64,000 bases of DNA from positions 13,757 through 77,756 of IMG/VR virus record IMGVR_UViG_3300042923_000241, one strand, 5' to 3'. Position numbers and translations under genes: made by a program. Under the pieces are notes generated by a model, which had not been told where the DNA came from, ran no database searches, and saw nothing but the letters and a program-made list of their open reading frames with translations. Shown in pieces: positions 6,383 to 63,756 of this stretch. The number at the start of each line of letters is the position of its first letter. Position 1 is the stretch's first letter. This DNA is from a virus.

Positions 6383-6542
6383 CAAAAATAGTAGAGAAAC
6401 GCAAAACAAAAACACGGCATTGCCTAAATGCTCCTTTTGTTGGAAGTCGCCAAAAGATTCTTTAATAGCAAACAAAACGATGGAAGTTTTTATTTGCGCT
6501 GAGTGTATAGATGCTTGCAATCAGATTATTTCAAAAAAATGA
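6375..6542 (+). CDS. second stand-alone ClpX-type C4 zinc-finger protein
   Basis: CSFCWKSPKDSLIA...FICAECIDACNQII. Confidence 0.78.
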   Translation: MNNKNSRETQNKNTALPKCSFCWKSPKDSLIANKTMEVFICAECIDACNQIISKK

Positions 6543-6559
6543 AAGTGGAGGAATGAAAT

Positions 6560-6985
6560 ATGAATCAATGTCAATTCGTCGGAAGACTAACCGCAGACCC
6601 AGAAGTCCGATACACGAAGACAGGCAAAGCGGTCGCATCGTTTACCCTAGCTGTCAATCGTAATGCATATTCTTCACAGAGAGAGCCGAACGAAAAGGAA
6701 CCTGCCGACTTCGTCCCTATTGTGGCGTGGGAGAAGCTTGCTGAAATGACAGGTAACAACCTAGCAAAAGGCAGCCGTGTCTTTGTACAGGGCAGATTAC
6801 AGATTCGCTCATATGAGACTCAGGACGGACAGAAACGTCGAGTTAGCGAGATTGTGGCAGATATTATTGCGCCGAATTTTGAGATAGCTAAAGACAATAA
6901 CAGGCAACAACCGCCACAAGCTGATGCAAAAGCAGCGTTCGGCGGCAGAGAAGTGTTTCCGCCAGAAGAAGAAATCCCATTTTGA
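6560..6985 (+). CDS. ssb: single-stranded DNA-binding protein
   Basis: VGRLTADPEVRYT, GSRVFVQGRLQIRSY, acidic EEEIPF tail. Confidence 0.96.
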   Translation: MNQCQFVGRLTADPEVRYTKTGKAVASFTLAVNRNAYSSQREPNEKEPADFVPIVAWEKLAEMTGNNLAKGSRVFVQGRLQIRSYETQDGQKRRVSEIVADIIAPNFEIAKDNNRQQPPQADAKAAFGGREVFPPEEEIPF

Positions 6986-6996
6986 GGTGACAAAAC

Positions 6997-7599
6997 ATGG
7001 ACAACTTCACACAATCACCAGGCAACCAATTTTCCAGACTGAATCTGCTGCAACAGTTCATGGCAAATCACAAAGGCTTCATTGCCGGAGGTTGTTTCAA
7101 AAATCTATTCAGCAACGAAAGAATCAAAGACGTTGACATCTTTTTTGAAAACGAAATTGACTTTTTCAACGCAGTAAGATATTTCGACAACGATTCAGAT
7201 TATGTTAAACGCTACGAAAACAAAAAGGTTGTTGCCTACAAGAACACCAAAAACAACATCGTCATTGAGTTGATTCGTAGCGTGTTCGGAAGTCCTAAAG
7301 AGATAATTGACAAATTCGACTTCTCAATAACTAAGTTTGCCTATTACAAACAAGAGAATGGCGAATCAGTCAGTTATGAAGCTGTGTATCACGAAAAATT
7401 CTTTGAACATCTGCACTTAAAGCGGTTGGTGCTGAATAAACAAATATACTTTCCTGTATCAACTTTTGAGCGGTCTTTGCGATACACAAAATACGGATAC
7501 GGACTATGCAGAGAGAGTAAAGAAAATCTCATCAGTGCGATAAGAGAAACGCAGATTTTAGACGGAATCAGTAACAGTCTTTATGATGGAGTTGATTAG
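6997..7599 (+). CDS. phage nucleotidyltransferase-like protein (polyA polymerase/CCA head-like)
   Basis: FIAGG...KDVDIFF (GG + DxD), FDFSITK, KYGY. Confidence 0.6.
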   Translation: MDNFTQSPGNQFSRLNLLQQFMANHKGFIAGGCFKNLFSNERIKDVDIFFENEIDFFNAVRYFDNDSDYVKRYENKKVVAYKNTKNNIVIELIRSVFGSPKEIIDKFDFSITKFAYYKQENGESVSYEAVYHEKFFEHLHLKRLVLNKQIYFPVSTFERSLRYTKYGYGLCRESKENLISAIRETQILDGISNSLYDGVD

Positions 7600-8211
7600 C
7601 AATGAGTTGGCGTGAACACTCAAAATCAGTAATTCGTCAAGCCGTAACCGAACTGTCGCCGACAATTCCAGATGCTAACGAATTGTTTAAGCACATCAGC
7701 CTAAAATACTATCCTTTCGGCGAACGTGACTATCATCCGTACAAGCAATGGCTGAAAGTGCTTGCTGATGAGAAAAAGATTTATGTCTGGAAGAACAAGC
7801 CTAAAACTGAAACAGAAAATGTGAACGTGGGGATGTTTGAATAATTATGCAAGAAACAACTGCGACTTATAAACGATACTACTGCCCCGTATGCGGACAA
7901 GCGATTGTTGTAGTTCCTGATAATGCCAATGCAAGCGGAAACGCCTTCATCAGATGCGTCTGCATGACGGTACTTAGAATCGGACTAAAGCGCAAGAATG
8001 GCGAGGTTGTGTTTACGGTGTTGGGGAGGAAGTAACATGAACGACATAGACAAATGGAAACTTCGCGCACACCAAATAGCGGAGCAGCAAGGCAAACCAA
8101 TGCGGGTAGTTAGACATCCGAGAGGTGAATTTCAAATATCGGCAGACACGGGGAAACATCCTGTACCAGACTACCTTAATTATGTACAGGTATACTCCAC
8201 GAGGGAACAAG

Positions 8212-8844
8212 ATGCCAAAATTTAAAGACTTAACAAATATGAAGTTTGGAAAGTTAACCGTTTTGCGTCGAGCAGAAAACAAAAGTAAACTCACTAGGTG
8301 GGAGTGTATGTGCGATTGTGGAAACAAAACGACCGTTTATGCTATCGCGCTAATGAGGGGAGCAACAAAGGGTTGCGGTTGCCTTAGACACGAAACTAAG
8401 GCGCGGTATAGGCACGGCAAGACGTGCGACAAAATTCATGGTGTTTGGAATACGATGCTTCAAAGATGTTTTAATCCAAATATTGAAAAATATAAAAATT
8501 ATGGTGGTCGCGGCATTACGGTATGTGAAAGATGGTTGGATTTTGAAAACTTTTTATCAGATATGGGCGAACCGCCAAAAGGTTATTCTTTAGATAGAAT
8601 TGACAATTTTGGCAACTATGAACCAGATAATTGCAAGTGGTCAACACAAGAACAACAACAGAATAATAAGCGTAATAACATTATTATTGAATATAACGGC
8701 GAGGTTCATACATTAGCAGAATGGTCTACGAAACTTAATGTTAGATATGGCTCTCTTTGGAATCGCTATAAAAGAAAATGGAGCACAAAAGAAATGTTTG
8801 AAACACCACTTAAAACTTATTACAAGGGAGGATTGGCAAGGTGA
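8212..8844 (+). CDS. HNH homing endonuclease
   Basis: DLTNMKFGKL...CMCDCG, YGGRGITVCERW, SLDRIDNFGNYEPDNCKW. Confidence 0.88.
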   Translation: MPKFKDLTNMKFGKLTVLRRAENKSKLTRWECMCDCGNKTTVYAIALMRGATKGCGCLRHETKARYRHGKTCDKIHGVWNTMLQRCFNPNIEKYKNYGGRGITVCERWLDFENFLSDMGEPPKGYSLDRIDNFGNYEPDNCKWSTQEQQQNNKRNNIIIEYNGEVHTLAEWSTKLNVRYGSLWNRYKRKWSTKEMFETPLKTYYKGGLAR

Positions 8845-9102
8845 CTAATTGGGACAAAGCCTTAGAAGCGATTGACTTAGAATCGCAACTAGCAAAATGC
8901 GAAAATTGTCCTTGTTCGCAAGTTGCGGGTTGCATCAGTTGCGGTCATTATCACCACGATTGCGCCGACTCTGATTGTAGTACAAGCCATATTATACCGC
9001 CAGGAAAACTCAGATTATGTTCGGCAGATGACTGCGTTATGACAATGATTAAATTGCAACGAGAGAATGAGCAAATGAAAGCGGAATTGGGAGGGCTTAA
9101 CA

Positions 9103-9387
9103 ATGACAAAACTTTACGGCGCATCAGATGATTTAATTGAATTACATGGCGACTTATACGAAGAATTTGACCGCTACGACAGCGAAGGCGACTATCTGGC
9201 TTTCTCTGACGGAACAGTCGTTTTTATGTACTACGACGATAACGGAATTTGGAGAATCAGAGTTGACTTCAAAGGCGGTTTGTTTGATCGAAAAGAGGAA
9301 GGCGACATTGAAAGTGACACAAACGATGTTGTTTACTTCAAAGACGGTTTGAAGTGGTGTGTGATTGGGAAGGAGCTGGCAAAATGA
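9103..9387 (+). CDS. conserved phage hypothetical protein
   Basis: GGAGG RBS; YGASDDLIE motif. Confidence 0.6.
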   Translation: MTKLYGASDDLIELHGDLYEEFDRYDSEGDYLAFSDGTVVFMYYDDNGIWRIRVDFKGGLFDRKEEGDIESDTNDVVYFKDGLKWCVIGKELAK

Positions 9388-9725
9388 ATCTTGATTTAGC
9401 GAAGATTAGAGCGACGGCTGAAAATGCGACTCCGGGGCCGTGGATAGCCTTTTCAGATGAAATATGCATTGCGACGGAGCAAGAGGTCGGACTACGGTAT
9501 CCGACAATTGCATCGAATATTGATAGTCGAAAAAAATGGTTTAATTATGCTGATTCTCAATTTATCGCAACCGTCAATCCTCAAACAGTCATTGCTCTGC
9601 TTGATTTGGTGGAATCACTAAAATGTTGCGGGAATTGTAAGCACTTCGGCGATTGGGAACCTGATAATATTTGCGCCACTCAATGCGATGTTGAAAAGTT
9701 TAGCCTGTGGGAAATGTCAAAATGA
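9384..9725 (+). CDS. Ead/Ea22-like protein
   Basis: AENATPGPW ... FIATVNPQTVIALLD. Confidence 0.7.
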   Translation: MNLDLAKIRATAENATPGPWIAFSDEICIATEQEVGLRYPTIASNIDSRKKWFNYADSQFIATVNPQTVIALLDLVESLKCCGNCKHFGDWEPDNICATQCDVEKFSLWEMSK

Positions 9726-10090
9726 AACTAATCATTCCCGGTAAGCTCCCCGGTCTAAACGAATACGTAAAAGCCTGTCGCGCTAACAGATATGCCGGGG
9801 CGCAGATGAAGCAAAAAGCTGAAGATGGAATAAAAGTTGAGATTGGCAGACAACTTGGCGACAAAAAGTTTGAGTCAGTAAGACTTGCCTTTCATTGGTT
9901 TGAACAGAACAAACGCAGGGATTTTGACAACATAGCCTTTGCCAAAAAGTTTCTATTGGACGCATTGCAAGCGACAGGGACATTAAAAAATGACGGTTGG
10001 AATCAGATTGCCGGATTCAGCGATACGTTTTCAGTGGACAAGAAGTGTCCTAGAATTGAAGTCGAAATTCAGGAGGTTGTTTCACCATGA
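9722..10090 (+). CDS. rusA: RusA-like Holliday junction resolvase
   Basis: PGLNEY, RRDFDNI..AKKFLLDAL..G...ND, PRIEVEI. Confidence 0.85.
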   Translation: MKLIIPGKLPGLNEYVKACRANRYAGAQMKQKAEDGIKVEIGRQLGDKKFESVRLAFHWFEQNKRRDFDNIAFAKKFLLDALQATGTLKNDGWNQIAGFSDTFSVDKKCPRIEVEIQEVVSP

Positions 10091-10325
10091 AACCAATTCG
10101 TTGCATCTACTGTGGCGCAATAGAAGGTGAACCAATTGAAGAATTAGTGCCTGTGCCTAGTATGCGTTGGGAAGGCGATTGGCAACATGTAGACTTTCAT
10201 CGTGAAGTCGTCAGAGAAGTGTCGTTTAATTCAATTGAAAATCGAGATGGCGAAACAGAGTATGTCTGTTCGGAATGTCGGCAGAGGTTTACTTTTAGGG
10301 AAATAAAAGAGTCGGAGGTAAACAA

Positions 10326-13549: not shown

Positions 13550-14041
13550 ATGTATAAACTTAAATGCTTTGAAGGAACAGAACCGAGAATTGGCGTGACC
13601 GACGAATTTATAAATCGAAACAAATTATCAATTAACCAAGAAGCAGCAAAGAAGCTTCTTGAGGATACAGGAGATATGTTCGGGTTTTCTAAAGAAGTCG
13701 CCATTGAATTTGTTGATTATGATACAGCAAAACCAAATCTTAATAACACTTACATTACAAAGGTTGAATCAGGCGAAGTCGAGTTTAGTTTTATTGCTGA
13801 TGTTAAAGAAGCAACGCAAGACTTTCTTGACTATATGGTGTTTGCATGGGACAAGGCTATGGGAGAAAGAGGAATATCGGCGGGAAGAAGCATTGAAAAG
13901 CTGTCTGCTTGGATGAAAATTCTAAACAGGCCAGATATTGCCGATGTATTACAGAGCGGCTCGCTTTACTCTCCATATGGCAGACCCGCGCTTCGCAAGG
14001 CTTGCGAAATGCTAGAGATCAAATGCCCAAATTATCTTTAA
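13550..14041 (+). CDS. hypothetical phage protein
   Basis: AGGAGG RBS; 163 aa. Confidence 0.6.
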   Translation: MYKLKCFEGTEPRIGVTDEFINRNKLSINQEAAKKLLEDTGDMFGFSKEVAIEFVDYDTAKPNLNNTYITKVESGEVEFSFIADVKEATQDFLDYMVFAWDKAMGERGISAGRSIEKLSAWMKILNRPDIADVLQSGSLYSPYGRPALRKACEMLEIKCPNYL

Positions 14042-49110: not shown

Positions 49111-49643
49111 TGATAAAAAAACGCCATGACGGAACCTATGAGATTTTGAATAACGGACTGCCTTATCATGTTTTGCAGACTGACCCGATATTTGCTGAAG
49201 TCGATAGCTATGCGCAGGCTCATCCTGATGAGGTTGAGATCGTGCCTGCGCCGCCAGGGCCGACGCTGGAAGAATCAAAAGAGACCCTCCGCGCAGCAAT
49301 TAACACCGAACGAAACCGGCGAGAAATGGGCGGCTTTACCTATCTTGACAAAACTTTTGACAGCGACCAAACTAGCGTGACCCGTATCAATGCTGCAGTC
49401 AACACAGCGGTTGCGGCTATCCTGACTATCTCGGTTTTTTCTGTGGAGTGGACATGCAAAGACAACTCGACAATCGCTCTGGATGCTCAGCAGTTCCTTG
49501 GCCTTGCATCAGCACTGGCGCAACACTCAAACGCCCAGCACGTGCGAGGTAGGGGGTTAAAAGATCAGACTGAAGCAGCGCAATCAGAAGCGGATTTGGT
49601 AGTAGTTGAAAACCTATTAAACGAATGGAAGGCAGAGGCGTAG
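49110..49643 (+). CDS. DUF4376-like tail fibre assembly protein
   Basis: INTERNRREMGGF...FDSD...WTCKDNS. Confidence 0.75.
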   Translation: MIKKRHDGTYEILNNGLPYHVLQTDPIFAEVDSYAQAHPDEVEIVPAPPGPTLEESKETLRAAINTERNRREMGGFTYLDKTFDSDQTSVTRINAAVNTAVAAILTISVFSVEWTCKDNSTIALDAQQFLGLASALAQHSNAQHVRGRGLKDQTEAAQSEADLVVVENLLNEWKAEA

Positions 49644-49723
49644 GCCTCTATTTTTATTAGGGGGTGGGAGCGTTCCTGCCAATACAACGGGTAGCAAAAT
49701 GGGGAGAGTGGAGTTGATGTAGA

Positions 49724-49966
49724 TTGTCAGAAAAAGACTTTCAGCAACAAGTGTTAGAGCGACTATCGGCGATTGAAACAAACGGGCAGTATTTCAGCGA
49801 AGGGTTAAAAATCATTCGCGAACACGGCGAGAGAATCACGGCGGCAGAAGCAAGTTCAAGTTCGGCACATAAACGGATTGACGGGATTTATCTGACTGCT
49901 GGCATGTTTGGCGCAGTCGCCGGATGGGTTGCTGATTTTGTCGGGAAGTGGTCAAGAGGTCACTAA
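49724..49966 (+). CDS. XhlA-like holin / lysis membrane protein
   Basis: ERLSAIET...SAHKRID plus a C-terminal TM. Confidence 0.7.
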   Translation: MSEKDFQQQVLERLSAIETNGQYFSEGLKIIREHGERITAAEASSSSAHKRIDGIYLTAGMFGAVAGWVADFVGKWSRGH

Positions 49967-49967
49967 C

Positions 49968-50288
49968 ATGAAATTTATTTCCAGTCTGATGTATGAAAAC
50001 GGCGAGGTGTCCGCAGTGCGGTGCTTCGCTGTTTATCTTATCATCATGGCGATGCACGCTTACTATGAAGCAATGTACTCCGGCAAGACATTTAGTCCCG
50101 AACAATGGGTAATTCTGCAAGACACTATCCGTGGTGGCGGTGCTGGCGGTGTAGGTGCGTTGCTAGTGAACAAGGCGTACAACTCTATTTTTAATACGCC
50201 ACGAAATGAGTATATGAGAAAGTCTTTGATCGGCGTAAGCGAGCAAGCCAGCAAAACAGGCGCAAACGGACAACAACTAAAGCTATGA
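49968..50288 (+). CDS. putative holin
   Basis: LMYENGEVSAVR plus hydrophobic helices; just before the endolysin. Confidence 0.55.
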   Translation: MKFISSLMYENGEVSAVRCFAVYLIIMAMHAYYEAMYSGKTFSPEQWVILQDTIRGGGAGGVGALLVNKAYNSIFNTPRNEYMRKSLIGVSEQASKTGANGQQLKL

Positions 50289-50297
50289 GGTGATTAA

Positions 50298-50912
50298 GTG
50301 TTAGGAGATTTGTCAAGCAAATACGAATCAAACGGCGACCCTGCAACTGTTTCTAGCGGTTGGGGTGATGCTGGCGGTGTGAGTTATGGATGTTATCAGT
50401 TAGCTTCAAATACAGGTAGCGCAGACAGTTTTGTCCGTTGGTTACGAAATAACAATCACCCTGCCGGAAATATTCTCGGTCAACATACTCCTGGTAGCAG
50501 GGAATTTTCAGCAGCTTGGGTTTATTGCGCTAAGAACATAGCAGACTTTGGTTACGCTCAACACAACTATATCGCCTATGCTTACTTTGAACCTGCTGTT
50601 GAATTATTGGCAGAGGCAGGGTTTCACATTGAAAATCATCAACCTATAATGGCAGACGTTGTTTGGAGCCGAGCGGTACAATACGGAACAGGTTATATTG
50701 TGGAAATGTTTGAAGATGCAGTTCATTCGCTAGGATACGAAAATCTGTCATATGTTGATGCGCCGAGATTCGATGCAGACATGATAAAAGCTGTGTATCT
50801 CAACGTCTGCATGACTGAGGAATGGACTAATGGAAGTCCCGCTCTACGAGAAGGGCTTTATAATCGGTTTCAAAATGAATGCGACGATGCGCTGATAATG
50901 TTGGAGGGATAA
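50298..50912 (+). CDS. endolysin (lysozyme-like fold)
   Basis: LGDLSSKYES, D.GGVSYGCYQL, VWSRAVQYG, NRF..E. Confidence 0.8.
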   Translation: MLGDLSSKYESNGDPATVSSGWGDAGGVSYGCYQLASNTGSADSFVRWLRNNNHPAGNILGQHTPGSREFSAAWVYCAKNIADFGYAQHNYIAYAYFEPAVELLAEAGFHIENHQPIMADVVWSRAVQYGTGYIVEMFEDAVHSLGYENLSYVDAPRFDADMIKAVYLNVCMTEEWTNGSPALREGLYNRFQNECDDALIMLEG

Positions 50913-50913
50913 C

Positions 50914-51192
50914 ATGATAATTGACGACGTAACAGTCGAAGCAGATGTGAGCATACCGCAAGAAGTTCTTGTTCAAGAAGTTGCCAATGAACGGATTATT
51001 TGGTTGGCGAAAAATAAAGTATTGGGCAGAATGGTTTTTACTATTGAAGGTGACGAAATTCTAATCGAAGCGTTTGAATTGTCAAAAATTAGGAGAACCG
51101 CCAGAATTACAGGCTATCTCAGTAATGTTGACAACTTTAATCTTTCAAAAAAGAAAGAGCTCGAAGCAAGAAAACCGCATATAACATTTTAA
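50914..51192 (+). CDS. stand-alone class III RNR (NrdD) glycyl-radical loop protein
   Basis: C-terminus RRTARITGYL...FN..KKKE...RKPH is the NrdD Gly-radical signature; only 92 aa. Confidence 0.8.
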   Translation: MIIDDVTVEADVSIPQEVLVQEVANERIIWLAKNKVLGRMVFTIEGDEILIEAFELSKIRRTARITGYLSNVDNFNLSKKKELEARKPHITF

Positions 51193-51312
51193 CGCTCAAA
51201 ATTGCTTCTTTAAGGCACGTTAGTTGTTTTACTGGTATTTGTACCCAAAAACGGTTAGCGTGCCTTGTGGCTTAATCTGGCTAGAAATAATAACATTGTG
51301 GAGGTAATATTT

Positions 51313-51582
51313 ATGTCTGACGAAAAGAAATTAGATGCTGCTGAGCAAAATGTTGTCCAACAGATAAAAGAACTTCTTGAATCTGCCAATCTAACTAAAA
51401 AGGAATTGGAAGATGTGAAACAAGCGATTGACCTGTACCTAAAAGCAATTTTCAAAGAAGCGTTTTTAGGAATCATTACTAGAATTAAATCACTTGTCAA
51501 AATCCTTGAATCGTATCTTGGCAGACCGTTTCTATATGTTTCTGTTGCCTATCTGTTGCTAAAACAGATAGGGGTGATTTAA
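51313..51582 (+). CDS. membrane-anchored hypothetical protein
   Basis: GGAGG RBS; C-terminal TM. Confidence 0.55.
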   Translation: MSDEKKLDAAEQNVVQQIKELLESANLTKKELEDVKQAIDLYLKAIFKEAFLGIITRIKSLVKILESYLGRPFLYVSVAYLLLKQIGVI

Positions 51583-52127
51583 TGTTTACCGCTTGGCAGA
51601 ACAAAGGCACGATATTTCTGTGTATAATCTTCCTTGTTGTCGGTGTCTTTATAGGGAAGACATTCTATTCAAAGACTGAGGTTCAGATTGTTGAAAAGCC
51701 TGTCAAGATAACGGAAACCGTCAAAGTTAAAGGCGATACAACCGTTGAATACGTTGAAAAAGAAGTCGTCAAATACCTAAAAGAAGATGGCTCTGTTGGT
51801 GAAAAGAAAGAACAGACTGATGTTCAAGCCGACATTGGACAACCAAAAGTATCAGTCAAAGTCAACAATCAGCCTTATCAGTTCTCGCTTTTGCAAGGAG
51901 AAACGCAGAAGTTTGAACAAGGGAAGATTGTCCTCTCTCAGAATAGCGAAATCAGTCTTAACTTAGATGTTCAACCACAGATTATTGACCGAACAAAATC
52001 AGGCGGTTTATGGTTTGGCGCAGGAAGTCGCGGTGCTAACGTGGCGTTAGAAGAATCTCGCATCTTAGCGCAAAAGTGGATAGGTAAAAAGGATTGGAAC
52101 GCTAGTTGGCAAGCTGTTCAATGGTAA
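51582..52127 (+). CDS. membrane-anchored lysis accessory protein (spanin-like)
   Basis: N-terminal TM, VEYVEKEV stretch, aromatic beta-rich C-terminus; end of the lysis cassette. Confidence 0.45.
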   Translation: MFTAWQNKGTIFLCIIFLVVGVFIGKTFYSKTEVQIVEKPVKITETVKVKGDTTVEYVEKEVVKYLKEDGSVGEKKEQTDVQADIGQPKVSVKVNNQPYQFSLLQGETQKFEQGKIVLSQNSEISLNLDVQPQIIDRTKSGGLWFGAGSRGANVALEESRILAQKWIGKKDWNASWQAVQW

Positions 52128-52203
52128 TTAAGATTTATCGCTAATAATTTTAATAAGACTAGCAATTTTATGTTGTTGTTAAAATGTGTTTGCATTATTT
52201 CAC

Positions 52204-52235
52204 GCCCTGCCGAAAGGTGGGGCTTTTTTATTTTG
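52204..52235 (+). terminator. terminator ending the late operon
   Basis: GCCCTGCC-GAAA-GGTGGGGC plus U-tract. Confidence 0.75.
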
Positions 52236-52257
52236 TCTACATTCAGTAACATTTGTG

Positions 52258-52286
52258 TTGACTAAAAGTAGCAATTGTGGTAATAT
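52258..52286 (+). promoter_or_regulatory. sigma-A promoter of the accessory operon
   Basis: TTGACT-17-TAATAT with an extended TG. Confidence 0.65.
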
Positions 52287-52305
52287 ATTCCCAAGAGGTG
52301 AAATT

Positions 52306-52629
52306 ATGAAAAAACTATTGTTTTCCGTCACGAAGAAGGACTTTGAACTACAATTCTTCTGTGCTGGCGGTAAGGGTGGCCAAAATCAAAATAAAGTAGC
52401 TACTGCTTGCAGAATCATTCATGCCGCTTCTGGTGCTGTGGGCGAGAGCAGAACACATAGGACTCAACTCCAAAACAAGAAAGAAGCGTTTTCGCGGTTG
52501 CTGTCTTCAAAAGAATTTAAGTTATGGCATAAAATCCAATGTTCTCGCAGTCTTGGACTTTCACGTTTGCCGGAAGAAATCGTTGAAGAACAGATGCAAG
52601 ATAAGTTTTTGAAAATCGAATATATATAA
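52306..52629 (+). CDS. GGQ peptide-release-factor-domain protein (ArfB/PrfH-like)
   Basis: FFCAGGKGGQNQNKVATACRIIH..SG...SRTHRTQLQNKKEA. Confidence 0.88.
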   Translation: MKKLLFSVTKKDFELQFFCAGGKGGQNQNKVATACRIIHAASGAVGESRTHRTQLQNKKEAFSRLLSSKEFKLWHKIQCSRSLGLSRLPEEIVEEQMQDKFLKIEYI

Positions 52630-53495: not shown

Positions 53496-53864
53496 TTGTT
53501 CAAAGTAATTGTTGCAGGTTCTCGCGGATTCAATGACTACGATTTATTAAAGGCAAAACTCGATATCATATTAAGTTCAATACAAGAGGATGAAATAGAA
53601 ATTGTATCAGGTACGGCTTATGGTGCCGACCAACTAGGGGAATGTTACGCTGTTGAGAAGGGATTAAAGGTTAAGCGATTCCCTGCCGATTGGGATAAAC
53701 ACGGCAAACGAGCAGGATATTTGCGAAATGAAGAAATGGCTAAATATGCTGATGCTTTAGTTGCTTTTTGGGACGAACGCTCATCTGGGACAAAACACAT
53801 GATCGACTTGGCGAGAAAACACAATCTGTTGGTAAGAGTAATTAAGTATGGGGAGGACAAATAA
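53496..53864 (+). CDS. SLOG-family (YspA-like) protein
   Basis: IVAGSR, VSGTAYGAD, PADW..HGKRAG..RN..M, GTKHMI. Confidence 0.85.
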   Translation: MFKVIVAGSRGFNDYDLLKAKLDIILSSIQEDEIEIVSGTAYGADQLGECYAVEKGLKVKRFPADWDKHGKRAGYLRNEEMAKYADALVAFWDERSSGTKHMIDLARKHNLLVRVIKYGEDK

Positions 53865-54283: not shown

Positions 54284-54781
54284 ATGCCTAAACAGTATGC
54301 GCCCGCAAACAACTACGAGCAGAAGTTAAGTCGTGTCATGGAACGACTAGCGATTGAAAAATACAACTACAATTGGGACAGGTTTGGCGGTTGGGTTGAG
54401 TTTTACTACAACGGCGAAATGTACCGCTTTGAACACAGCATTGAGAAAGCTAAAGCAAGAGGAATCAAGTTATCATACGGCTCAGATGCATTTGCACAGG
54501 TTGTCTTGTCGTTAGAGGACTTAGCTAGAATGGTAGAGCGCGGAATTTACGAATTGTCAACGTGGGTATCTGGCATGAAGTATCTACCTCCTGCGATTGA
54601 AGTCCCTTCATTCTTTAAGTATTTGGGGTATCAAGAAATACCACATAGCGTTGACGATGTAAAAGAACGGTATCGGTCACTAGCAAAACAGATGCACCCT
54701 GACGTTGGCGGTAATCAAGAGGATTTTCAGAAGTTAAAAGAATCTGCTGAACAAGCATTTAGTTATCTTAGTAGGACTTGA
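54284..54781 (+). CDS. protein with a C-terminal DnaJ (J) domain
   Basis: VKERYRSLAKQMHPDVGG...F. Confidence 0.8.
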   Translation: MPKQYAPANNYEQKLSRVMERLAIEKYNYNWDRFGGWVEFYYNGEMYRFEHSIEKAKARGIKLSYGSDAFAQVVLSLEDLARMVERGIYELSTWVSGMKYLPPAIEVPSFFKYLGYQEIPHSVDDVKERYRSLAKQMHPDVGGNQEDFQKLKESAEQAFSYLSRT

Positions 54782-60264: not shown

Positions 60265-61053
60265 ATGGCCAACAACTTTAGCAATGATAGAACAGGCACA
60301 GGCACACGCGAATGGTCTGAATACTCAATGAATATAGGATTAGGTTGTAGAAACAAATGCCGTTATTGCTATGCAACGATTCATGCCTTACGGTACAAAC
60401 GCATTGCCAATAGGGACGAATGGGAGAATGAAACAGTAAGGGATAATGCTTTTCCTAATGGCATGGGTAAGCGAGTTGGCGTTATCATGTTCCCGACAAT
60501 TCACGACATTACGCCAACATATCTTGAAAAGTCTATTGACGTACTTGTAAAAACATTGAAAAATGCCAACAATGTGCTAATCGTTTCAAAACCGAGAATC
60601 GATTGCATTGCACCGTTGCTAATTGCTCTCGAACCGTTCAAAGAACAAGTGCTGTTTAGGTTTACAATTGGAACATTAGACAACGAACTGTCTAAGTTTT
60701 GGGAACCCGGCGCACCGTTGCCAAACGAACGCATTGAATGTTTGAAGTTGACCTATGAGTCTGGATTCAAAACATCTGTCAGTATGGAACCAATGTTGTC
60801 CGGCAAAGAAGATGCTATTAAGACCTTTGAGGCAGTTGAGCCTTATGTTACAGACAAGATATGGCTAGGCAAAATGAATAAGATTAATCAACGTGTCTTG
60901 ATGGACGACGAATCGGTTGCCGTTGCAGTACAAAAGATCAAAGACTTGCAATCGGACAGCGAAGTCGCAACCTTATACAATGCGTTGAAGGATAATCCTA
61001 AAGCAGAATGGAAGGACTCAGTTAAACAGGTTGTTGGTATTGTTCCGGCTTAA
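60265..61053 (+). CDS. radical SAM protein (SPL/DUF5131-like)
   Basis: GCRNKCRYCYA (CxxxCxxC), WEPGAP...RI, TSVSMEPML. Confidence 0.8.
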   Translation: MANNFSNDRTGTGTREWSEYSMNIGLGCRNKCRYCYATIHALRYKRIANRDEWENETVRDNAFPNGMGKRVGVIMFPTIHDITPTYLEKSIDVLVKTLKNANNVLIVSKPRIDCIAPLLIALEPFKEQVLFRFTIGTLDNELSKFWEPGAPLPNERIECLKLTYESGFKTSVSMEPMLSGKEDAIKTFEAVEPYVTDKIWLGKMNKINQRVLMDDESVAVAVQKIKDLQSDSEVATLYNALKDNPKAEWKDSVKQVVGIVPA

Positions 61054-61797: not shown

Positions 61798-62076
61798 GTG
61801 TTAGAGATTCCTGTTGCGGCGAAGATTATTCCGTTGGCTCTAGCTGGCATGATTGCTTTATCGCCATTGCCAAAACCTGATGCATTATTAGAAATGGCTA
61901 AAACCACAAAGATTTACAAAGAGCATGTGACAACTGATAACGGCTATACAGAAACTATCACTATTACCGAGCGTGATTCTAACGAGAAGAAGGGTATAGT
62001 GTCAAAAGCGGGTTCTGAAATATGGCAAGTAGGCAAGGGTGTTTGCAAGAAAGTCTACTGGTGGATTAAAAAGTAA
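61798..62076 (+). CDS. membrane/exported hypothetical protein
   Basis: AGGAGG RBS; hydrophobic N-terminus. Confidence 0.55.
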   Translation: MLEIPVAAKIIPLALAGMIALSPLPKPDALLEMAKTTKIYKEHVTTDNGYTETITITERDSNEKKGIVSKAGSEIWQVGKGVCKKVYWWIKK

Positions 62077-63164
62077 TGGGCATGTTGGCGAAGTGGTTAG
62101 CCAAGCGAAGAGGAACAGAATTGCCTTTCGTTGTTGCCGATACGGTAAAAATACTGTGGCCTGATGAAACGCCGACACTAATCAGGCAGAGCAAGACAGA
62201 CACGGGTTATGAGTTTGTATATGTCATGCCACGGAATCTGAGTTTTGATGATTTCATGCGCAAAGAGGGAAATTTCAGAGCGGCGACAGGTTGTAAAATT
62301 GCCTTTGATATTAACGGCAAGGCGTTAACAATGCAAGTGTTTGAATCCGAATTGCCTAAAGAAATAGACTACAAATGGAATCCATCTGACTATCAAAAGA
62401 TGCACCTTCCTATACCGCTTGGAATCAGCTTAGACGGTGTGTATGTAGTTGATTTGGCAGAACTACCCCATATGTTTTTATCCGGCCCTACAGGAACAGG
62501 AAAGTCAATGATAACTAGAAGCATAGCAACTAGCCTGCAACTTGGAAGTTCTGAAAAAATGTTTATGGTTGTCGTTGACTATGGAGAGGTTGACTATCTT
62601 TGGCTGGAAAATCACGCTTTGCTTGTGACTGACCAAGAAAAGGCTTTGCAGGTATTTCAGCTATTGAACAAGGAGATGGACAGACGAAAGAAGCTGCTCG
62701 TTAAATATCGAGTAGAAAAGGTCACTAAGCTGCCGGAGCCTATACCGTTTATTGTTGTGCTGATCGATGAATTTGTGGAGATAAAAGACGATGAGAAAAG
62801 CATTAAGCTAGTTGACCGGCTATGCAGGGTTGGCAGAAAAACAGGCATACATATTGTAGCTGCTACACAGAGATTGTCGCATACGGCTGTCAAGGGCGCA
62901 GGCGATATTAAACACAACTTCCCTGCTAGACTGTCCTTTCGCTGTGATGCGGTCAATTCCAGGATGATTTTAGGTGATGATTGCGACATGGCTAGTAAAC
63001 TGCCGAACGTCAAAGGAAGGGCAATATTCCGCAATGGTGAACCGATTGAGTTGCAGACATTCCGAATCGACCCTCAACTAGCCGGTAAATTGGTCAATCA
63101 ACTTCCTTATCAGCAGGAGGTTTTCAACGTTGAACAATCACCAATTATGTTACCGCCGAGATAG
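62076..63164 (+). CDS. FtsK/SpoIIIE-family ATPase
   Basis: PHMFLSGPTGTGKS, VVLIDE, GIHIVAATQR, S.MILG, KGRAI. Confidence 0.92.
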   Translation: MGMLAKWLAKRRGTELPFVVADTVKILWPDETPTLIRQSKTDTGYEFVYVMPRNLSFDDFMRKEGNFRAATGCKIAFDINGKALTMQVFESELPKEIDYKWNPSDYQKMHLPIPLGISLDGVYVVDLAELPHMFLSGPTGTGKSMITRSIATSLQLGSSEKMFMVVVDYGEVDYLWLENHALLVTDQEKALQVFQLLNKEMDRRKKLLVKYRVEKVTKLPEPIPFIVVLIDEFVEIKDDEKSIKLVDRLCRVGRKTGIHIVAATQRLSHTAVKGAGDIKHNFPARLSFRCDAVNSRMILGDDCDMASKLPNVKGRAIFRNGEPIELQTFRIDPQLAGKLVNQLPYQQEVFNVEQSPIMLPPR

Positions 63165-63756
63165 TGATGTAATTTTGTCGCTTAAAGAAATGGGAGCATT
63201 AGACCTTTATCAGATCAAACATCTGTATTTCCCAAGCATCAGAACGGCGCGAAGACGCATGGAGATTTTGGCTAAAAAGAAAGGTGTTAATCGTGTTCGT
63301 CCGTCTATTGACTTGCCTTATCATTATTGGGTAGGCCGAAAGCCTGGACAGTTAGAGCATAGAATAGGCACTAATTACGCCAGACTGTATTTAGATGAAG
63401 GTCTAAAATCGTGGGAAACAAAGCATTCTTGGGAATACGAACCACAATATTATGACATTCTCAGGCCGGACGGATTCATGGCAATTAAGAATACCACTAC
63501 AAATAAGCTGAAATGCCTGTTTGTTGAGTTTGACCGATGCTTTGATCCTTTTGATAAGGTGCAGAAATACAACGAACTGTACGCCAATGGTGGCTTTGTT
63601 GGCGCATGGTGGGCTAAACTGGTTGACAGATTTCCTGCTATATTGGTCGTTAGTGAAGATGTTGGCAGAGCGCAGAAGCAATTAAAAAACAACAAACACA
63701 ACCTAGAATTCAGATTCGTTGATTATCGACAAATAAGGGGGCAATTCTCTTGTTAG
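63130..63756 (+). CDS. replication-relaxation (Replic_Relax) family protein
   Basis: RD..VIL, QLEH, LRPDG, FVEFDR, KVQKY; coupled to the FtsK gene. Confidence 0.82.
   Translation: MNNHQLCYRRDSDVILSLKEMGALDLYQIKHLYFPSIRTARRRMEILAKKKGVNRVRPSIDLPYHYWVGRKPGQLEHRIGTNYARLYLDEGLKSWETKHSWEYEPQYYDILRPDGFMAIKNTTTNKLKCLFVEFDRCFDPFDKVQKYNELYANGGFVGAWWAKLVDRFPAILVVSEDVGRAQKQLKNNKHNLEFRFVDYRQIRGQFSC

Follow-up and report, generated by a model that had tools for sequence, protein, structure and literature searches.

The stretch analysed here (the window) comprises 64,000 nt of the virus record IMGVR_UViG_3300042923_000241, positions 13,757 to 77,756, and carries a small gene whose 92-aa product ends in the glycyl-radical loop of NrdD, the anaerobic (class III) ribonucleotide reductase (RNR). 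Anaerobic RNR is the supplier of DNA precursors in strict anaerobes, and oxygen destroys glycyl radical enzymes at the radical glycine. We propose that this stand-alone protein is probably a trans-acting glycyl-radical subunit, or spare part, for the NrdD of the host, activated by the host activase NrdG. The proposal is supported by the homology of the protein, by the family to which it belongs, by the complementarity of this family with NrdD cores devoid of their own glycine loop (Gly-less cores), by co-variation of subtypes, by NrdR-box-like sites and by a natural fusion to NrdG.

The tail of the phage protein reads IRRTARITGYLSNVDNFNLSKKKELEARKPHITF. Residues 58-89 match the final ~31 positions of three NrdD models, PF13597 (E 5.4e-5; model positions 532-562 only, 22.5 bits for a cut-off of 26.2), TIGR02487 (E 4.7e-6; model positions 550-581 only, 25.4 bits for a cut-off of 326) and phrog_487 (E 1.1e-3). 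Scores remain below the cut-offs, as they should when nothing but the tail of NrdD is matched; with 92 aa, the phage protein has neither the ten-stranded alpha/beta barrel of NrdD with its catalytic Cys finger loop nor the score of a whole NrdD. When compared with 23 NrdD C-termini by hhalign, the protein aligned over 39 columns with a probability of 99.6% (E 4.7e-24, 62% consensus identity). This alignment is limited to residues 55-92 with nothing upstream of 55, which argues that the N-terminal domain (N-domain) is not a degenerate Zn ribbon. Moreover, the protein contains no cysteine and the Cys4 Zn ribbon is therefore absent. The elements of the NrdD glycyl-radical loop are all found, with RITGY at 64-68 followed by N76, K79, E82, R86 and H89. 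In profile alignments, G67 falls on position 580 of T4 NrdD (G580A in the crystal entries) and on the RITGY glycine of Prevotella copri NrdD (Gly711 in the numbering of PMC11226230). In the P. copri enzyme, the radical loop is anchored to the substrate flap by Tyr712 and by tail residues, which run over the barrel (PMC11226230); Y68, N76, K79, E82, R86 and H89 are the counterparts of Tyr712 and of these barrel-lying residues. Neither PF01228 nor GrcA models gave a match in Pfam or NCBIfam at E<=0.1.

A model computed with AlphaFold2 (AF2) from the family alignment reached a predicted local distance difference test (pLDDT) score of 92.1. The predicted N-domain has a beta-alpha-beta-beta arrangement (strand 6-9, helix 16-32, strands 37-45 and 48-55), and the tail forms a beta-hairpin (62-65/68-71) with G67 at its tip, followed by a helix (77-85). 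A Foldseek search against the PDB returned nothing at E<=0.001. A wide fold search with VIA-align gave generic beta-alpha-beta-beta matches to residues 1-60 only (Z<=6.0), with the tail barely covered; these matches, of which the ToxR periplasmic domain is the best (Z 6.0), are uninformative. Candidate roles for the N-domain are those of a docking handle on NrdD or of a handle for NrdG. The 92-aa open reading frame (ORF) ending in the NrdD motif had been noticed in a preliminary description made from the sequence of the window, together with the lack of barrel and Zn-binding cysteines, and all of this is borne out by the ORF, the NrdD models, hhalign, the tail-only matches and the cysteine count. 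The same description had seen a bare radical domain, which has to be corrected given the family-specific N-terminal domain of 54 residues.

A word-based search found two close relatives only (P0002 and P0003, 73% and 63% identity, respectively). A profile made of these three sequences, run against 1.84 billion representatives, retrieved 288 clusters at E<=1e-3, nearly all of them proteins of 85-115 aa. Their shared tail, RRITGYLS..NFNDAK.AEL.DR..H, lies 60-70 residues from the N-terminus and 27-30 from the C-terminus. The phage protein, with its motif at residue 64 of 92, matches family members over its full length. Judged by these matches, it is an intact member of a ~90-aa family and not a fragment. 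In a 99-sequence family alignment (A2, too diverse for the genome scan, for which alignment A3 was used instead) six positions are invariant, R64, G67, Y68, K79, E82 and R86, and the phage protein has them all; among those conserved in >90% of sequences (R61, R63, I65, T66, N76 and H89) it lacks only R63. Three clusters in the ESM Atlas, with 302, 496 and 115 members, consist of such proteins (~88 aa); most come from Bacillota and bear automatic names only. Current annotations of the family genes read 'hypothetical' or, mistakenly, full NrdD or NrdG.

A tree of the small proteins (96 columns, poorly resolved) showed a split between S and V types, with phage and chromosomal copies interleaved. 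The phage protein and its two metagenomic relatives fell inside the S-type clade, mostly composed of Sporomusaceae. Homology between the two subtypes extends to their N-domains when these are compared without the tail (97.5%, E 5e-12), and a single origin of the family follows. In one case the association with the activase is direct: the 287-aa protein WP_424660474.1 of Desulfofundulus sp. (P0100/P0154) carries the small domain (residues 1-95) fused N-terminally to NrdG (115-258), and this fusion passes the NrdG equivalog TIGR02491 with 139 bits (cut-off 126).

Among species-representative genomes, the best full-length relatives of the phage protein are all from Negativicutes (36-49% identity) and include those of Sporomusa, Pelosinus, Lucifera, Anaerospora, Propionispora, Dendrosporobacter and Veillonellaceae metagenome-assembled genomes. 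These relatives are not in prophages related to the phage; they lie in conserved chromosomal neighbourhoods, next to genes for an HD-domain protein, a large regulator and what were recognized by eye as TrmB-, MutY- and FtsW-like homologues. When 101 genomes were sampled evenly across the class, NrdD was present in 101/101 and the small gene in at least 64. In 19 of these 101 genomes, the Pfam match of the sole NrdD ends between positions 527 and 540 of the 562 in the model; each of the 19 carries the small gene, which is adjacent to the Gly-less core in three and remote in the others. Five of the 19 were read by sequence (G135, G132, G100, G063 and G082; cores L149-L153 with small genes L154-L160): their cores end directly after the Zn ribbon, e.g. 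with CPSCGTSSIRRVRKIIE before the stop, and the small gene is adjacent or megabases away. Three of these cores (L149-L151), together with a core from a phage (L053, see below), scored 996-1071 bits on the NrdD equivalog NF005497, for a cut-off of 764. Other genomes have a full-length NrdD with its own loop in addition to one or two distant small genes, as observed in Sporomusa ovata, S. malonica, Lucifera butyrica, Anaerospora hongkongensis and Propionispora. An NrdD partner, either Gly-less or full-length, and NrdG were found in the same cell in every bacterial genome examined.

Cores and small proteins are also matched by subtype. Long cores (~760 aa) occur with 'GYLVGT..RFN' small proteins and short cores (~650 aa) with 'GYLS..NFN' small proteins, in 5/5 cases by sequence and, as judged by score classes, in 19/19. 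The same two tail types are found on two types of full-length NrdD. Regulation points in the same direction. The NrdR box reportedly has the consensus acaCwAtATaTwGtgt and a tandem arrangement. Tandem NrdR-box-like sites, 31-32 bp apart, precede seven of 60 chromosomal small genes (none in 1800 shuffles), and three of these seven are remote copies in Gly-less-core genomes. Within this group of genomes, similar NrdR-like boxes are also found upstream of nrdD.

The virus record that contains the window is complete: it measures 77,756 bp (41.4% G+C) and has direct terminal repeats of 127 bp. In this complete genome, the tail of the small gene is the only match to NrdD, and no match to NrdG was detected even at E<=1; the absence of nrdD and nrdG stated for the window in the preliminary description thus holds for the whole phage. 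The only radical S-adenosylmethionine (radical-SAM) enzyme of the phage is encoded at 60265-61053 (+). It has a CxxxCxxC motif at residues 28-35, belongs to phrog_13321 and scores weakly as spore photoproduct lyase (SPL)-like, 'radical SAM mobile pair B' or Rv2578c-like protein. As a candidate NrdG-type activase it was rejected, with no match to any glycyl-radical activase model.

How common is such an orphan copy among phages? A viral scan with the three-sequence alignment yielded no match, and GenBank phages gave no match at protein or DNA level. A scan of IMG/VR revealed 56 loci, eight of which are full-length NrdD with Zn ribbon in large phages and the rest small stand-alone ORFs. Of 43 viral records with the small ORF that were searched, 41 lack an NrdD core and 42 lack NrdG; among those at least 90% complete, both are missing in 11 of 12. 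Two phages carry a core of their own. In L053, a 724-aa NrdD ends after the Zn ribbon (CPCCHRKETEIRHTTIKRIEE before the stop) without a Gly loop, and a 93-aa family member starts 8 nt downstream. In L030, a 504-kb phage, the locus at 6403-10246 has its genes in three pieces: nrdD is split by an HNH endonuclease ORF (7175-7795), the C-terminal piece of nrdD stops behind the Zn ribbon, and the next ORF (9950-10246) is a family member of 98 aa; NrdG is encoded elsewhere in the genome. The complete tail motif is present in 36 of 37 distinct true family tails from phages. The phage homologues, whose conservation the preliminary description proposed to check, are conserved.

The phage is temperate, as indicated by a tyrosine integrase of 429 aa (L161:1147-2436), and its stretch was found in three soil metagenome studies, one of them perhaps its source; the sequencing runs listed with it are all DNA, none RNA. 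A provirus (G008) shares with it the succession of small gene and 181-aa membrane protein, plus a few other genes. The small protein of this provirus is identical to Acetonema longum WP_004096044.1, and the genome with that identical ORF (G100) possesses a Gly-less NrdD core of 659 aa and a second, chromosomal small gene. The terminase has prophage relatives of 39-40% identity in 2/201 Negativicutes genomes, a result compatible with that class and not decisive. From these relatives, the host of the phage is probably a Negativicute.

Taken together, these data suggest how the protein would act. The host activase NrdG, a radical-SAM enzyme, would abstract a hydrogen from Gly67 of the small protein. 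The tail (residues 55-92) would then enter the barrel of the host NrdD as a hairpin finger, at the place of the C-terminal loop of the enzyme itself, with the tail helix lying across the top of the barrel; the radical would pass to the catalytic cysteine and ribonucleotides would be reduced. In a host with a Gly-less NrdD core, the phage would contribute a further copy of the obligate radical subunit. In a host with full-length NrdD it could play a GrcA-like role, replacing a loop cleaved by oxygen or never activated. The phage may thereby secure its deoxyribonucleotide (dNTP) supply, or give its lysogen an advantage, in soil with fluctuating oxygen, and would do so by supplying a cheap, consumable part of 92 aa rather than an enzyme of 650-800 aa. 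A trans-acting subunit for host NrdD had been suggested in the preliminary description as an oxygen-repair device. The subunit is well supported by comparative genomics (the 19/101 genomes, the two phages, subtype matching, NrdR-like sites and the NrdG fusion); repair after oxygen exposure, as its specific role, is not, and the protein may instead be an extra obligate subunit.

For the family as a whole, the most economical reading is that it supplies the NrdD radical in trans, being obligate for loop-less cores, spare or alternative for complete ones and orphan in phages without RNR. With slightly less assurance than for the phage protein itself, we suggest that class III RNR of many anaerobes and phages is a two-component enzyme, made of a core and a detachable, separately regulated ~90-aa subunit, and that the orphan copies of temperate phages plug into host cores.

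Several points weigh against the protein being a productive radical subunit. Residue 63 is Ala in the phage protein, compared with Arg in >90% of the family. Stand-alone S-type proteins have 'DNFN' where full-length NrdD of the same type has 'DRFN' (alignments A2 and A4). The Arg of this motif corresponds to P. copri Arg719, which contacts the substrate flap (PMC11226230); since it is replaced in the S-type proteins, docking may take a different geometry. AF2 predicts the Gly hairpin as confidently as the N-domain (pLDDT about 89-92); if the hairpin packs against the N-domain, entry into the barrel would require the tail to swing out. We infer, rather than observe, radical formation on Gly67 and docking into NrdD, and the same is true of the benefit to the phage. 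The class of the host is deduced from nearest relatives, and its NrdD may be Gly-less or full-length. The small gene sits in a late lysis operon, with the endolysin upstream and two small membrane proteins downstream. Phage nucleotide-metabolism genes are usually located in the replication module. Finally, no NrdR box was detected upstream of the phage small gene within 4 mismatches, save a poor site at -226; with <=2 mismatches, there is none anywhere in the window.

Part of these points would fit a decoy (the alternative named in the preliminary description) or plug, in which a mimic of the NrdD tail titrates host NrdG or fills NrdD barrels without catalysis and so shuts down or retunes host dNTP synthesis. 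The activase-recognition motif is kept while the catalytic core is absent and the phage has no NrdD or NrdG; the Ala63 and 'DNFN' substitutions point the same way, the late-operon position is ill-suited to a supply role, and the residues conserved for a working subunit would largely be required in a plug or decoy as well. We nevertheless regard it as unlikely. For 19/101 Negativicutes genomes, and for two phages that encode an NrdD core, the family is the sole source of the Gly loop, and its ancestral function is therefore productive. Phage copies conserve the radical Gly and the tail invariants as strictly as chromosomal ones do, 'DNFN' is equally found in chromosomal S-type copies of Gly-less-core genomes, and blocked dNTP synthesis would harm a phage without its own RNR. 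Slightly less credible again is another partner or role, where NrdD would be only the evolutionary source and the protein would serve as a radical or oxygen sensor for lysis timing, or as cofactor of a different barrel enzyme. Such a role would account for the location of the small gene beside lysis-region genes in three otherwise distant phages (this phage, G003 and G008). No function can be assigned to the N-domain, and 9 kb downstream there is a gene for a divergent radical-SAM protein. However, this latter protein matches no glycyl-radical activase model, most phage copies are not beside lysis genes (by homology), and the perfect co-occurrence with Gly-less cores, the subtype matching, the NrdR-box-like sites and the NrdG fusion all designate NrdD and NrdG. 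As for the possibility that a phage nrdD was split, with the small gene as one half, or has decayed to this remnant, the neighbouring core and small gene of two other phages could be taken as a precedent, yet we hold this to be very improbable. The genome is complete with terminal repeats and has the tail as its sole NrdD match, which rules out the case named in the preliminary description as refuting its view, a split nrdD with its other half elsewhere. In addition, 41/43 small-gene viral records, including 11/12 of those >=90% complete, are also devoid of a core. The frame of the gene is intact, its ribosome-binding site strong and the N-domain of its product confidently folded; of the conserved residues only one is replaced (Ala63 for Arg). 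A trans-acting subunit for host NrdD thus remains the reading that we favour.

The features of the gene and of its surroundings are collected in Table 1. The ATG at 50914 lies 1 nt further than the TAA stop of the endolysin gene (50910-50912), and the small gene is embedded in the lysis region, the position given in the preliminary description and confirmed by the sequence, the PF21277 match and the operon layout. This operon (49724-52127) consists of six ORFs bracketed by terminator-like sites. Upstream of the endolysin and the small gene, it encodes two small proteins in which hydrophobic stretches were seen by eye; downstream follow a 105-aa protein with a weak holin match and a 181-aa protein (phrog_37316) with a hydrophobic N-terminal stretch (by eye). 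The small gene is probably co-transcribed late with its neighbours. The promoter-like site inside the endolysin gene is possibly its own promoter, and the hairpin directly after its stop, which none of 200 shuffles equalled in folding, is possibly an RNA end or stability element; the two leave room for moron-like expression from the prophage, so that late and moron-like modes are both candidates. A variant contig from another soil metagenome shows 15 changes and 3 indels over the hairpin stretch (51199-51325). Contig X3, where it covers the small ORF, is identical to the phage and thus uninformative on selection. Adjacency to the endolysin is not conserved, by homology, at other small-gene loci.

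Table 1. Features of the small gene and of the lysis region (positions in the window)
Feature	Position	Strand	Basis or remark
92-aa stand-alone NrdD-type glycyl-radical protein gene (small gene)	50914..51192	+	ORF, stop codon counted in
Shine-Dalgarno GGAGGG	50903..50908	+	read from sequence; 5 nt upstream of ATG, inside 3' end of endolysin gene
Endolysin, VgrG3-like C-terminal lysozyme domain	50298..50912	+	PF21277, E 1.4e-37
N-terminal domain, residues 1-54	50914..51075	+	family-specific; no homology to NrdD Zn ribbon
Glycyl-radical loop and tail, residues 55-92	51076..51189	+	AF2, hhalign, family alignment
Codon GGC, Gly67, predicted radical site	51112..51114	+	profile alignment to NrdD structures
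Promoter-like site TTCACA-16-TATAAT (11/12), inside endolysin gene	50623..50650	+	consensus match only
Hairpin, 20-bp stem, without U-tract, directly 3' of small-gene stop	51208..51268	+	dG -27.9 kcal/mol, z -4.2
Intrinsic-terminator-like site closing lysis-region operon	52204..52233	+	terminator search
Terminator-like site preceding operon	49634-49659		terminator search

Adjoining the operon terminator, an ORF at 52186-52629 (+) encodes an RF-1/GGQ domain (PF00472, E 4e-16) as in the ArfB/ICT1-like peptidyl-tRNA hydrolases of ribosome rescue; its start is probably an internal ATG near 52306. Further accessory genes, at 53496-53864, 54284-54781 and 62076-63756, encode a YspA/SLOG protein (PF10686), a DnaJ-domain protein and an FtsK/SpoIIIE ATPase with a Replic_Relax protein. 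From its gene content, the phage is temperate with a conjugative-element-like module.

Searches of the literature (open-access papers and bioRxiv preprints) retrieved no description of a stand-alone NrdD radical protein nor of a split class III RNR, in agreement with the preliminary description, which knew of no characterised example. According to a 2026 review, formate lyases are the only glycyl radical enzymes with known spare parts, and whether others have them is an open question (PMC13450708). Likewise, a survey of RNR extensions lists no class III enzyme that is split and regards split domains as a mark of class II (PMC9669993). The closest analogue is GrcA/YfiD of E. coli, thought to be activated by the activase of the parent enzyme and to replace its damaged loop (PMC13450708, PMC8683613). 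GrcA is likewise a small autonomous protein that ends in a copy of a large enzyme's Gly-radical loop, and it is encoded apart from the full-length enzyme, as are the family copies in the five Negativicutes named above; for the phage copy, the parent would be that of the host. GrcA is however homologous to pyruvate formate-lyase (PFL), whereas the phage protein is homologous to NrdD; its N-terminus is disordered, in contrast to the folded beta-alpha-beta-beta N-domain predicted here, and it is not known to be the sole loop carrier, which the small-protein family is in many genomes. Y06I of T4, as far as it is described in PMC13450708 (citing Wagner et al. 2001), offers a phage precedent, being an autonomous glycyl-radical protein working with host enzyme and activase; by the same source, it is of PFL type and rescues PFL. 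T4 moreover encodes complete NrdD and NrdG, the present phage neither.

With the C-terminal domain of NrdD itself (T4 Gly580, PDB 1H7A family; P. copri Gly711, PDB 8P23), the phage protein shares loop, short helix and tail, including Gly, the following Tyr, Asn, Lys, Glu, Arg and His. There, a Cys4 Zn ribbon precedes the loop, which is covalently held on the barrel, whereas the phage protein is a separate polypeptide with an unrelated N-domain. A C-terminal functional module made as a separate polypeptide has a parallel in NrdJa/NrdJb, the class II RNR of Pseudomonas aeruginosa (PMC4520616), which differs by belonging to another RNR class and by the lack of a radical site in NrdJb.

If the proposal is true, a small radical-bearing subunit or spare part would be described for the first time for a glycyl radical enzyme other than PFL. 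The question of spare parts can now be directly tested for anaerobic RNR with natural pairs of core and small protein (an Acetonema longum-like genome and two phages), and organisms with a full-length enzyme and a spare copy, as well as orphan phage copies, are likewise at hand. The annotation of the family genes would have to be corrected, and the one-polypeptide textbook picture of NrdD would change. For phages, the gene would represent a new kind of auxiliary metabolic gene and a new route to the nucleotide supply of the host. For anaerobes of soil and gut, it would show how pulses of oxygen can be cheaply tolerated.

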